Positions 43,884 to 62,294 of a stretch of 64,000 nt of DNA are shown piece after piece (position 1 is the stretch's first letter; every line of letters begins with the position of its first letter). Under the pieces are notes generated by a model that was not told the origin of the DNA, searched no databases, and saw only the letters and a program-made list of their open reading frames with translations. A program made the position numbers and the translations under genes. The stretch lies in the NCBI GenBank assembly GCA_963742735.1, contig CAVUMN010000004.1:1504001-1568000 (forward strand), written 5' to 3'. The stretch is from an uncultured Actinomycetes bacterium. GTDB taxonomy: Bacteria; Actinomycetota; UBA4738; JBBDTT01.

Positions 43884-43956
43884 TGCCCCTGGGAGGATTC
43901 GAACCCCCGACCCGCTGCTTAGAAGGCAGCCGCTCTATCCCCTGAGCTACCGGGGC
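43884..43956 (-). tRNA. tRNA-Arg(TCT)
   Basis: GCCCCGGTAGCTCAGGGGATAGAGC, GCTGC-CT-TCT-AA-GCAGC anticodon arm, GGTTCGAATCC; one acceptor-stem mismatch (G6/A67). Confidence 0.92.
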
Positions 43957-44044
43957 CGATGAACCAAGAATAGCGTGGTCAGGGGCTGTTTTCGGAGGTG
44001 GGGACGGCCCCTTCCACATTGCTCGCGGGCGAGCGATGTGGCAA

Positions 44045-44240
44045 TTAGGGGGCATCGGCTTCCGCCTCGGCCTCCCGGAACACGCTGTCCAGCTCCGCGT
44101 CAGTCTTTCGCTCTGCGCTCTCGAGGGCGCGCGAGTAAAAGCGCACGGTCGTGGCGACGTCGGCGTGCCCGAGCATGCGGGCGACCTGGTCGAGAGACCT
44201 CCCGTGGGTCAGGGCGAGGGTGGACGCGAAGTCGCGGACT
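44045..44240 (-). pseudogene. Tyrosine integrase C-terminal remnant
   Basis: RDFASTLAL...VARMLGHADVATTVRFY (box II, LGH, catalytic Tyr). Confidence 0.8.
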
Positions 44241-44254
44241 TCGGATCTACGGCG

Positions 44255-44705
44255 CGCCCCACCCGGTGGAACGGTTCTCCGAGGGGACCATCGAGGACGC
44301 CGACTTCGAGGCACGGGTGGCCGCGGCGGGCGACGCCCTCGCCGAGCGGCTGGGCTGGTTCTCCAAGGCGCCGGACATCGTGGCGGTCGATGACGACCGG
44401 ATGGCCGAGCGCTCGGCGGGGCTGGTCCCTCTCGTGGTGAGCGGACACTTCCACCATCAGCGCGAGGTGTCTCTCGGGGGCACGACCTTCCTTCGCGGAG
44501 GGGCCGCGTCGGGCGGAGGGCTGTTCGAACCCTTCTCCTGGAGCACGCGCACGTCCTGGCCGTTCAGGTGATCTACATCGAGGACGGCCGAGCCGTCGCG
44601 TACGACACGGTCGAGCTCGACGTCGCCGCCGAGGAGGTGACCGTTCGTCGGCACCTCGTCGAGCCCGCCGATCCGGCCGTCCCCGCGCCCACGACAACGC
44701 CCTGA
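44255..44705 (+). pseudogene. Metallophosphoesterase C-terminal fragment
   Basis: PDIVAV and LVVSGHFH; no N-terminus; frameshifted. Confidence 0.5.
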
Positions 44706-44724
44706 GGCGGATGTCCCGGCCTGG

Positions 44725-59209: not shown

Positions 59210-59329
59210 GGCTGTCTCATACCACCAACCCCACGCCGACCGCCACGGAAGAGGGGGCCGGTGGAAATTGACGACGCCCTCGGCCGGGAACAAGACTCCC
59301 CTTGAGACCAGCGAGCGAGGGGGAACCAC

Positions 59330-61525
59330 GTGTCTGAGCGCGGCAGCGAAAGCGAGAACCCGGTAATCGACTCGCCGACTCCCAAGGCGACTCGGCCGAG
59401 GACGAACCGGGACTGGTGGCCGGACCAGCTGGACCTCTCGGTCCTCCACCAGCACTCGCCCCGGTCCGATCCGCTGGGTGAGGACTTCGACTACACGGAG
59501 GCGTTCAAGACCCTGGACCTCGAAGCGCTGAAGCGGGACCTCATCGAGGTGATGACCACCTCGCAGGACTGGTGGCCGGCCGACTACGGCCACTACGGGC
59601 CGCTCTTCATCCGGATGACGTGGCACGCCGCCGGCACGTACCGGATCGAGGACGGGCGGGGCGGAGGGGGAGAGGGCGCTCAGCGCTTCGCCCCGCTCAA
59701 CAGCTGGCCCGACAACGCGAACCTCGACAAGGCGCGCCGTCTGCTCTGGCCGATCAAGCAGAAGTATGGCCGGAGGATCTCGTGGGCCGATCTCATGGTC
59801 TTCGCCGGCAACGTTGCCTATGAGTCGATGGGGTTCGAGACGTTCGGCTTCGGCTTCGGGCGGCCCGACATCTGGGAGCCCGAGGAGATCTTCTGGGGAT
59901 CCGAGGACACGTGGCTCGGAGATGAGCGCCACAGCGCCGAGGGGGAGATCGACGGGCCGTTCGGTGCCGATCACATGGGCCTGATCTACGTGAATCCCGA
60001 GGGCCCGGGTGGAAACGCGGACCCGCTCGACGCCGCGAAATTCATCCGGCAGACCTTCGGCCGAATGGCGATGAACGACGAGGAGACGGTCGCGCTCATC
60101 GTCGGCGGCCACAACGTCGGCAAGACCCATGGCGCCGTGGACGCCGATTACGTCGGTCCGGAACCCGAGGGCGCGCCCATCGAGGAGCAGGGCTTCGGCT
60201 GGAGGAACACCTTCGGCAGCGGCAGCGGCACGGACACGATCACCAGCGGCCTCGAGGGCGCGTGGACCAACGAGCCGACCAAGTGGGACAACGGATTCCT
60301 GGACAACCTGTTCAAGTACGACTACGAGCTGACGACGAGCCCGGCGGGCGCCAAGCAGTGGACCCCGAAGGATCCCGCGGCTCAGGAGACCGTGCCGGAT
60401 GCCCACGATCCCGCGAAGCGACACGCCCCGATGATGCTGACGACGGATCTCGCACTTAAGGTGGATCCGATCTACGGGCCCATCGCGAAGCGCTTCCACG
60501 AGAACCCGGACCAGCTGGACGAGGCGTTCGCGAAGGCCTGGTACAAGCTGCTGCACCGAGACATGGGTCCGATCTCCCGCTACCTCGGGCCGTGGGTTCC
60601 CGAGCCGCAGCTGTGGCAGGACCCCGTCCCCGCCCTCGATCACCAGCTGATCGGGGACGAGGACGTCGCCGCGCTCAAGAGCACGATCCTGGCCTCGGGC
60701 CCGTCCGTCTCGCAGCTGGTGTCGACCGCTTGGGCCGCCGCGTCCAGCTTCCGCGGCACCGATAAGCGAGGCGGAGCCAATGGGGCTCGGATCCGCCTGG
60801 CGCCCCAGAAGGACTGGGAGGTCAACGAGCCGGCCGAGCTGGCGAGCGTGCTGCCGGCCCTCGAACGGATCCAGCAGGACTTCAACGGTGCGCAGTCCGG
60901 TGGGAAGCGTGTCTCGCTGGCCGATCTGATCGTCCTCGGCGGGTGCGCGGCCATCGAGCACGCGGCGAAGGAAGCCGGATTCGACGTCACGGTTCCGTTC
61001 GCGCCGGGGCGCACGGACGCTTCACAGGAGCAGACCGACGTCGAGGCGTTCGCCGTGCTGGAGCCGGCCGCGGACGGGTTCCGCAACTACCTCCGTGCCG
61101 GACAGAAGGTGACGCCGGAGTCCCTGCTGGTGGATCGGTCATTCATGCTGAACCTGAGCGCCCCCGAGATGACGGTCCTGATCGGCGGCATGCGGGCTCT
61201 GAACGCCAACGCCGGGCGAGCCGCACACGGCGTCCTCACCGAGCGGCCCGGGACGCTGACCAACGACTTCTTCGTGAACCTGCTGGACATGAGCACGGAG
61301 TGGAAGGCGTCCGCGTCGGCCGAGAACGTGTACGAGGGCCGCGTTCGGGCTACCGGCGAGGTGAAGTGGACGGCCACCGCCGTCGACCTCGTCTTCGGCT
61401 CGAACGCCGTGCTCCGGGCCCTCTCCGAGGTCTACGCCCAGGACGACTCCAGGGAGAAGTTCGTCCGTGACTTCGTGATGGCGTGGGACAAGGTCATGAA
61501 CCTCGATCGCTTCGACCTCGTCTGA
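59330..61525 (+). CDS. katG: Catalase-peroxidase
   Basis: Motifs [43 protein letters not shown] and KVMNLDRFD. Confidence 0.97.
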
Positions 61526-61575
61526 CCTCATCCTCTCGCGGGCTCCACCGGGGGAGGCGGACCGGCAGATAGCCT

Positions 61576-62243
61576 GACGCCCTGGGCTTCCTCGAGGAGG
61601 CCCTGAACCTCGCGCCCGAGGAGCCCGGGGTCCGGGCCTCGGTCCTGCGATCGCTCGGCCTCGCGCAGCAGAGCCTGGACCGGTGGCAGGAGCGCTTGGC
61701 GACATGGAAGGAGGCGCTGCCGCTGTTCGCGGCGGCGGACGACCGGGACGGTGCGGGGCGCACGTACTCCCACATCGTGTCCCAGCTCATGACCACCGGG
61801 CAGCTCATCGACTCGTTCCAGATCACGACGGAGGGCCTCGCGACGCTGGGGGATCGACCGCGACTCCTGGGCGAGTGCCTGGCCCGGCAGACGTATGTCC
61901 ATTTCGTCCTCGGCGAAGCCAGCGCATCCATCGAGGTGGGCCGGCGGGCGCTGGACGTTCTGCGCGGGTCGGGGGCGCTGTGGAACGCCGTCGAGCTGGT
62001 GGGGCCGATCGGGATCTTCATGCGTCTGCTCGGCCGGTTCGATGGGGCGCGCGAGGTGGAAGCCGGCGGCGAGGAGCTCGCCACGCGTCTGGCGCACCGC
62101 GGGGCGCTGGTGACGCTCGGGGCTGGTCGGACGTTCGACGCCCTCGCTGCGGGAGACCTGCCCACGCTGCGTCGCGACGCCGAACGCACCCTCGAGTTGA
62201 CGCTCGACGAGCGGGCCACGGGCCTGGGGTTCGTGGCCCATGC
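61576..62243 (+). pseudogene. Partial duplicate of the SARP-cyclase-STAND TPR region
   Basis: Near-identical to 54462-54746 plus 54870-55252 (123-bp deletion). Confidence 0.88.
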
Positions 62244-62244
62244 C

Positions 62245-62294
62245 CCGCTCTATCCCCTGAGCTACCGGGGCCGTGCGGCCAAGAATAGCCTGCT
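62245..62294 (-). repeat. Cassette junction 4: truncated tRNA-Arg 5' fragment + promoter
   Basis: CCGCTCTATCCCCTGAGCTACCGGGGCCGTGCGGCCAAGAATAGCCTGCT, matching 56042-56091. Confidence 0.88.

Follow-up and report, generated by a model that had tools for sequence, protein, structure and literature searches.

How does a row of gene cassettes without recombinase genes come to be punctuated by spare front halves of a tRNA gene? The question is raised by a 64,000-nt stretch of DNA, referred to here as the window, which corresponds to C4:1504001-1568000 in the genome of an uncultured actinobacterium (G000; 3.08 Mb in five contigs, 89% complete, 72% G+C). tRNA genes are classical landing sites for mobile DNA, where nearly always the 3′ part of the gene is duplicated and the island carries an integrase of its own. 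In the window, it is the 5′ part of a tRNA-Arg(TCT) gene that is repeated, and the repeats delimit three cassettes (Table 1). We analyzed this array and conclude that it is probably a tandem stack of at least three small islets, lacking recombinase genes, which inserted site-specifically at the anticodon stem-loop of tRNA-Arg(TCT) with reversed polarity.

Repeated 5′ halves and a common breakpoint

The tRNA-Arg(TCT) gene is single in the assembly, as judged by scans of the genome itself, and four blocks carrying its 5′ half and upstream flank lie on the same strand, with G1 at 43956, 49403, 56068 and 62271. The repeat finder returned the blocks as a four-copy direct-repeat family (43930, 49377, 56042 and 62245) with spacings of 5447, 6665 and 6203 nt, together with a second family of three copies that reaches through the anticodon arm. 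A 27-nt probe (tRNA positions 1–27) matched the window four times at no more than one mismatch, and gave no match in 100 dinucleotide shuffles. An earlier, sequence-only reading of this DNA had placed the repeats at 43916, 49363, 56028 and, in truncated form, 62245, and had estimated the cassettes at about 5.4, 6.7 and 6.2 kb; ARAGORN, the repeat finder and the probe agree with the former, and the spacings with the latter. Among the 52 tRNAs of the genome, an Islander-style scan detected 5′ fragments for tRNA-Arg(TCT) only; an intact tDNA with co-oriented 5′ fragments upstream is the topology of a recognized Islander class.

The blocks are identical from about −24 to +41, the identity ending in the 3′ strand of the anticodon stem. 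Read in tRNA orientation, copies B and C run ...CCTTCTAAGCA, then A, and then enter unrelated sequence, whereas the live gene continues ...GCAGCGGG. For comparison we used the only other genome of the genus (G001; an independently assembled metagenome-assembled genome (MAG), 61% complete), so that the genus sample comprises two genomes, and a wider sample of 100 order-level relatives. In G000 and G001 taken together, four of four full displaced copies break after A41 (...TTCTAAGCA then A) and enter different DNA, and both intact genes continue as tRNA past this nucleotide. The two full copies in G001 break at A41 into two further, different sequences; the third G001 copy is degenerate. A junction scan added one metagenome contig from an unrelated organism of 55% GC (L043), in which the 5′ half of a tRNA-Arg(TCT) likewise breaks at this nucleotide. 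A single breakpoint joined to different partners points to site-specific recombination and not to random decay or duplication. The common breakpoint, together with the array in G001, upholds the earlier proposal of site-specific insertion at the anticodon stem-loop, with duplication of the 5′ part and stacking upstream.

When elements integrate classically at tRNA sites, the symmetric anticodon stem-loop is where the identity ends and where many tyrosine integrases cross over. By analogy, the extent of the blocks suggests that the identity reaches outward just enough to rebuild the gene, which here would mean 5′-ward into the flank containing TATTCT. The actinobacterial −10 pattern is TANNNT, and TATTCT agrees with it. 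The earlier observation that this hexamer recurs as a −10 flank was correct for all four copies, but its reading as a promoter found no support in a sigma-70 consensus scan, which returned zero promoters in 43700-62500; we therefore refer to the flank as a putative promoter. Position 3 of the acceptor stem is C in every copy found in the genus and G, compensated in the 3′ half, in the order-level relatives. Since the spare 5′ halves share the genus-specific C3, they appear fitted to this host lineage, i.e. to the resident 3′ half. The live G000 gene has an acceptor-stem mismatch, G6-A67, where its G001 ortholog has G6-C67.

The DNA that abuts the broken tRNA halves was also compared. Arms 1 and 2, which adjoin copies B and C, share 76% identity across 125 nt, including the 21-nt identical stretch to which the sequence-only reading had drawn attention. 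A motif of the arms, TTGTGCCGC-N4-CTGCCGC, recurs in the arm of one G001 copy at about equal distance. At the left end of a second G001 contig (C113, L037, approximately positions 1-290), the motif is found as TTGTGCCGC-N4-(C/T)TGCCGC with one mismatch, and the opposite strand beside it carries a T-arm-like stretch with ...CCACCA at its end, called by neither ARAGORN nor Rfam; a search for a degenerate 5′ half close to this motif gave a score below the shuffle mean. The idea that the arms represent a diverged tRNA 3′ half with its trailer was discarded, as the alignment score was reached by 122 of 500 shuffles for arm 1 and by 464 of 500 for arm 2; arm 1 has a 10-nt identity to the 3′ part of the tRNA at the matching offset. 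Rfam detected nothing besides tRNAs in the arms and cassettes of the window or in the two G001 contigs. No candidate excisionase was seen, the small open reading frames (ORFs) near the arms having no Pfam match, and no attC-like sites are evident in the array.

The locus in relatives and the search for a recombinase

Two contigs of G001 contain the corresponding region. On C56 (L036), the order is displaced copy, 2.5-kb cassette with an extracytoplasmic function (ECF) sigma factor and a PD40-repeat protein, intact tRNA, IS481-like transposase, tRNA-His and tRNA-Lys, where the last two tRNAs match window positions 37215-37448 at 90%. The transposase (L036 3228-4441; DDE type with HTH_32, rve and rve_3) lies right after the 3′ end of the tRNA-Arg gene. 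On C113, a methyltransferase gene is followed by a full displaced copy, an ORF with a PA domain, the degenerate copy and a copper-amine-oxidase-like ORF, and the gene at the contig end is 56% identical at the amino acid level to C4:1568118-1569056, the gene just right of the window. With such anchors on both sides, tRNA-His/tRNA-Lys on one and the 56%-identical ortholog on the other, the G001 array is assigned to the same chromosomal locus. The cargo of the two genomes shows no nucleotide similarity, and their ECF sigma factors are 33% identical. None of the 100 order-level relatives has a displaced copy: 68 gave no match at up to three mismatches, 31 gave one match each, and in G075 two full genes are present. 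The single-match count and the results for G075 and G049 rest partly on unpublished genomes (G014, G027, G031, G049, G052 and G075). The locus is best read as an insertion hot spot common to the genus.

To find the enzyme responsible, the whole G000 genome was scanned in six frames with the profiles PF00589 and PF00239. The former gave three matches, all on contig C3, and the latter two, at C2:53467 and C4:3204. The tyrosine recombinases are two Xer-like proteins and one integrase of the arm-binding type beside a tRNA-Met gene. In this last region (L006; C3:340407-349834), the 452-aa tyrosine integrase is located just downstream of tRNA-Met(CAT), and a 43-nt 3′ fragment (positions 33-75) lies 9.3 kb off; the enzyme is thus tied to its own island with a classical 3′ fragment, which counts against a role at tRNA-Arg. 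In a further region (L044; C2:52283-53952), a 552-aa ORF for a large serine recombinase overlaps, with its 3′ end, a tRNA-Ala(GGC) gene of the opposite strand; at C4:1495873, 8 kb left of the window, lies a 27-nt 3′ fragment that matches tRNA-Ala. On the metagenome contig L043, the region 393-2388 holds the broken 5′ half and, 330 bp from it, a gene for a large serine recombinase that a frameshift splits into two overlapping frames. The enzyme is only 27–30% identical to the one of G000 that sits on tRNA-Ala, and no link between them could be made.

In G001, the recombinase genes are two Xer-like ones only, with no serine recombinases, and the cassette stretches on the two contigs contain none. 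Among the 100 relatives, PF00589 matched mostly Xer-like genes among the matches listed. A tblastn comparison of the five G000 recombinases with L007-L043, a shallow test covering the 1.5-kb flanks of tRNA-Arg(TCT) in 28 relatives, longer contigs of G001, G075 and G090, and L043, gave one tyrosine-integrase match, on the 3′ side in G049. The intact cognate integrase that had been envisaged elsewhere in the genome did not emerge from the six-frame scan or the tRNA-fragment scan, and no cognate integrase for the array site was found in G000, in G001 or, by searches that need near-exact sequence, in public collections. A pattern scan of genome contigs for the displaced junction gave nine loci. 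Two of these are the G001 copies; the remaining seven match a 16-mer by chance, lacking both a tRNA 5′ half upstream and a tRNA-Arg in the vicinity. Viral contigs gave zero junction matches; the plasmid search gave one match and the phage search 64 records, all covering the tRNA part only.

A proposed integration mechanism and competing explanations

We propose the following course of events. An incoming circle would carry an attachment module consisting of a minimal putative promoter flank and tRNA positions 1–41. A crossover, presumably in the anticodon loop and catalyzed by an enzyme that we take to be a tyrosine integrase, would join this module to the resident 3′ half, such that the tRNA stays whole, and the earlier promoter and 5′ half would be pushed outward, fused to the other end of the incoming element, i.e. 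the arm. Repeated rounds would yield the observed order: outermost old copy, cassette 3, copy C, cassette 2, copy B, cassette 1 and live tRNA, with cassette 1 the latest to arrive. If so, every block will at some time have provided an essential, single-copy tRNA with its promoter and front half. Most probably, the islets are either non-autonomous and moved by a recombinase whose gene lies elsewhere, or what is left of larger islands after loss of their integrase. As it now stands, the array displays decay and no sign of current mobility.

Several observations weigh against this reading. Recombinase domains are absent from all three cassettes and from the vicinity of the site (Pfam, PF00589 and PF00239 scans), and neither pattern nor BLAST searches of genome, metagenome, viral, plasmid and phage collections returned a free or autonomous element with the module; the latter is weak evidence, since the public-collection searches need near-exact sequence. 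An empty site was not seen within the genus, in a sample of two genomes of which one is 61% complete. The GC content of the cassettes (0.68–0.73) is like that of the genome, and the cargo is therefore not visibly foreign. The genome is a MAG, and the order of the array rests on assembly. Finally, the intact tRNAs of both genomes share the flank ...ACCACGCTATTCTyGGyTCATCG (21 of 23 nt), and all seven displaced or partial copies end ...GCACG, including outermost copy D, which would be expected to be ancestral. This difference in flank type would be better accounted for by a tRNA that had never been split than by our model, unless the copies were homogenised within each genome. Other parts of the flank do cluster by genome, with TATTCT in four of four G000 copies and TATCCT in the displaced copies of G001, and concerted evolution among the repeats may blur the flank signal.

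According to the never-split model, the elements carry a decoy flank and 5′ half and recombine in the promoter region, at the block's left edge (about −24 to −26); the ancestral −10 and 5′ half would then still belong to the live tRNA, and all displaced copies would derive from elements. Besides the distribution of flank types, the similarity of copies B and C of G000 over the whole of flank, block and arm speaks for it. However, it leaves unexplained why the identity ends in the anticodon stem in all four full copies and in the metagenome contig, and in known tDNA classes an identity end inside the tRNA marks the crossover. Two G001 copies with near-identical flanks and unrelated arms are likewise at odds with it, and concerted evolution among 65-bp direct repeats could yield the flank pattern. 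We consider the model distinctly improbable. Very remote is the explanation that involves no mobile DNA, by which the tRNA promoter and 5′ region underwent local segmental duplication and unequal crossing-over and the genes between the copies are ordinary chromosomal ones. The GC content and codon bias of the cassettes match the genome, the cargo families have many genomic paralogs, and a recent internal duplication of 670 bp is present, all as such an origin would predict; yet the breakpoint is identical and leads into unrelated downstream DNA in two genomes, the cargo at the same locus in the congener is entirely different, and near-identical paralogs of the cassette genes are lacking apart from a SARP piece. 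That the repeats were created by MAG assembly is barely conceivable. The near-identical 670-bp duplicate beside copy D could be a mis-join, but the copies differ in their flanks and sit in unique contexts, and a congeneric MAG assembled independently has the same architecture. Among Logan unitigs from one soil run, which contained 21% of the sampled words, and from its two sister runs, none bridged a junction; the near-identical ones measure 163–283 nt at a depth of 2–3, and the listed unitig joints at the junctions have short sides and come from other organisms.

The remaining alternative is an active, integron-like capture platform, at which a dedicated recombinase encoded elsewhere inserts and excises cassettes in trans via the module of promoter, 5′ half and arm. 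The earlier statement that cassettes 2 and 3 lack an integrase is confirmed by the Pfam scans and extends to cassette 1, and zero recombinase genes in the three G000 cassettes and in the G001 cassette stretches is what such a platform would require. The conservation of arms 1 and 2 and the wholly different cargo of the congeners fit as well, and with intact full identity blocks on either side of cassettes 1 and 2, excision is feasible in principle. No candidate recombinase is at hand, though, those of G000 being Xer-like, bound to the tRNA-Met island, or serine recombinases (one on tRNA-Ala); the arms are not conserved across all units; the truncated gene, the duplicated gene piece and the truncated outermost site speak against ongoing exchange; and neither excised circles nor, in the two genomes of the genus, empty sites were seen. 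We thus regard the platform as possible but unlikely. Of the earlier claim of mobilisation in trans, the missing integrases stand, and neither an empty site in the genus nor a free element in the collections came to its aid; of the relatives that the sequence-only reading had foreseen, those with different cargo at the same locus exist, in the form of G001, and those with an empty site were not seen in the genus. It is quite unlikely that promoter, 5′ half and arm together constitute the recombination site of recombinase-free cassettes that a trans-acting recombinase moves at the anticodon loop. Were that the case, a tRNA gene would be a chromosomal gene-capture platform analogous to an integron; and were the blocks mobilized in trans, regulators and stress enzymes would be captured at tRNA genes in soil actinobacteria about which little is known.

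Stacked insertion at the tRNA has precedents that bear on how unusual the locus is. Recombination at the 5′-distal side of tRNA genes is rare but known (PMC6563490). According to the Islander paper, a 5′ fragment is present in 159 of 3919 tDNA islands (its Table 1), and the paper counts 2083 islands with anticodon-centred sites, as well as 125 tandems of at least two and four tandems of at least three. The 5′-fragment class resembles the array in its intact tDNA with co-oriented upstream 5′ fragments, in identity that ends in the anticodon arm, in the occurrence of tandems, and in that the insert must supply the promoter and 5′ part. The polarity thus belongs to a documented minority class and is less surprising than the sequence-only reading assumed. 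Islander islands, whose filter demands one integrase per island, have their own integrase, whereas here none of the three islets does, and these are small (5.4–6.7 kb) and gene-dense. Polarity and stacking are already known; the missing recombinase across all cassettes in two genomes is the unusual part. Programs for finding islands that require an integrase would miss such blocks. Should these be no more than decayed islands, the locus would exemplify a rare integration polarity clearly but be otherwise ordinary.

Cis-mobilizable elements (CIMEs) are described, in ICEberg 2.0 and reviews of integrative and mobilizable elements (IMEs), as elements flanked by att sites that possess neither recombination nor transfer genes and are left behind by, or travel with, IMEs as well as integrative and conjugative elements (ICEs). 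By this description, CIME and accretion arrays are alike in having direct att repeats that bound integrase-less stacked blocks, excision of which would need a recombinase in trans, and unlike in that here no cognate ICE, IME or integrase was found, the 5′ side of the tRNA is used, and the host is an uncultured actinobacterium. The islets have the structure by which CIMEs are defined, being att-flanked and without recombination or transfer genes; a cognate autonomous element was not found. Tandem genomic islands also occur at the tmRNA gene ssrA of Dehalococcoides (PMC3146451). The likeness is that one small-RNA gene acts as a stacking hot spot, each island being marked by a partial repeat of the gene. 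The ssrA islands reportedly have 3′-end repeats and a recombinase of their own.

The resemblance to integrons is one of picture only: a row of recombinase-free cassettes at one site, the newest presumably beside the site. Integrons differ in that here no intI is found by the site, attC-like folded sites are not evident, and the cassettes are multi-gene units of mixed orientation that presumably have their own promoters. Integron cassettes are mostly promoterless single ORFs that lie co-oriented behind a common promoter, each with attC at its end; the repeat unit here is a tRNA 5′ half plus arm. The label integron-like, which the sequence-only reading had applied, is therefore withdrawn in view of the absence of an adjacent recombinase gene, the cargo on both strands and the lack of an evident attC-like site. 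The open-access literature returned nothing relevant on integron-like or recombinase-less cassette arrays at tRNA fragments. The array is best read as working like tDNA integration of reversed polarity, and we do not class it as an integron.

Cargo and surroundings of the array

Genes were called by third-position G+C, and domains by a Pfam scan of the ORFs. The cassettes are multi-gene units with genes on both strands, and cargo facing both ways implies no common promoter logic. Their codon bias agrees with the genome, in which the cargo families have many paralogs; near-identical paralogs of the cassette genes occur elsewhere for none except the SARP piece. The truncated gene, the duplicated gene piece and the truncated outermost site speak for the array now being, at least in part, a fossil.

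Table 1. Positions in the window of the tRNA-Arg(TCT) gene, its displaced copies, the arms, and the cassettes with their genes
Feature	Position	Strand	Content or basis
Possible degenerate 3′ fragment of tRNA-Arg(TCT), T arm and acceptor end	41870-41899	-	Two collinear short matches, each E ~1
tRNA-Arg(TCT), intact	43883-43956	-	ARAGORN; Rfam tRNA, 62 bits
Identity block A	43916-43980	-	About 24 nt of upstream flank (with TATTCT) and tRNA positions 1-41
Displaced block B	49363-49427	-	Flank and tRNA positions 1-41, 41/41 identical, then divergent
Displaced block C	56028-56092	-	Flank and tRNA positions 1-41, 40/41 identical
Outermost block D	62245-62295	-	Flank and tRNA positions 1-27 only; abuts duplicated SARP piece
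Arm 1	49240-49362	-	Non-tRNA sequence directly next to A41 of copy B; homologue of arm 2
Arm 2	55906-56027	-	Non-tRNA DNA abutting copy C; homologous to arm 1
Cassette 1, 5.4 kb	43957-49362		Metallophosphoesterase fragment, cyclase/AAA_16/TPR regulator, about 1 kb without recognisable genes (Pfam)
Metallophosphoesterase fragment, 5′-truncated	44242-44661	+	75% nucleotide identity to C-terminal half of gene at C4:79188-79608
Adenylate cyclase/AAA_16/TPR regulator, 1187 aa	44725-48288	-	Cassette 1
Cassette 2, 6.7-kb spacing	49428-56027		Cholesterol oxidase, cNMP-binding protein, SARP regulator (Pfam)
Cholesterol oxidase	49446-51260	-	Cassette 2
Cyclic nucleotide (cNMP)-binding protein	51179-51619	-	Cassette 2
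SARP/BTAD-cyclase-AAA_16 regulator	about 51800-55859	+	Cassette 2
Cassette 3, 6.2-kb spacing	56093-62244		ECF sigma factor, two unknown ORFs, KatG, SARP duplicate piece (Pfam)
ECF sigma factor ORF	55940-56674	+	Cassette 3; true start probably right of copy C
Unknown ORF overlapping ECF sigma factor ORF	56667-57689	+	Cassette 3
Unknown ORF	57814-58443	-	Cassette 3
KatG	59330-61525	+	Cassette 3
Internal piece of SARP gene, duplicate	61576-62243		54462-55252 minus 116 bp; 98.6-99.7% identity

The full-length counterpart of the metallophosphoesterase fragment in cassette 1 adjoins tRNA-Ala(CGC). The SARP duplicate, approximately 670 bp, is joined straight to truncated copy D at 62244/62245, and on the plus strand it reads through into a RibD_C ORF, reflecting either a recent rearrangement or a mis-join.

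Directly downstream of the 3′ end of the tRNA lies a 2-kb stretch of lower G+C (41900-43882; GC 0.61) with two ORFs for secreted or membrane proteins without a Pfam match. Together with the possible 3′ fragment at its far end, whose short matches are individually insignificant, the region 41870-43882 may be a classical 3′-side islet at tRNA-Arg(TCT), judging from its sequence. The array as a whole is flanked by genes for secreted proteins and a methyltransferase on one side and by RibD_C, subtilase, PhzF, tig and clpPX on the other, the genes beyond the array in G000 being those for PhzF, DUF2207, trigger factor, clpP and clpX.

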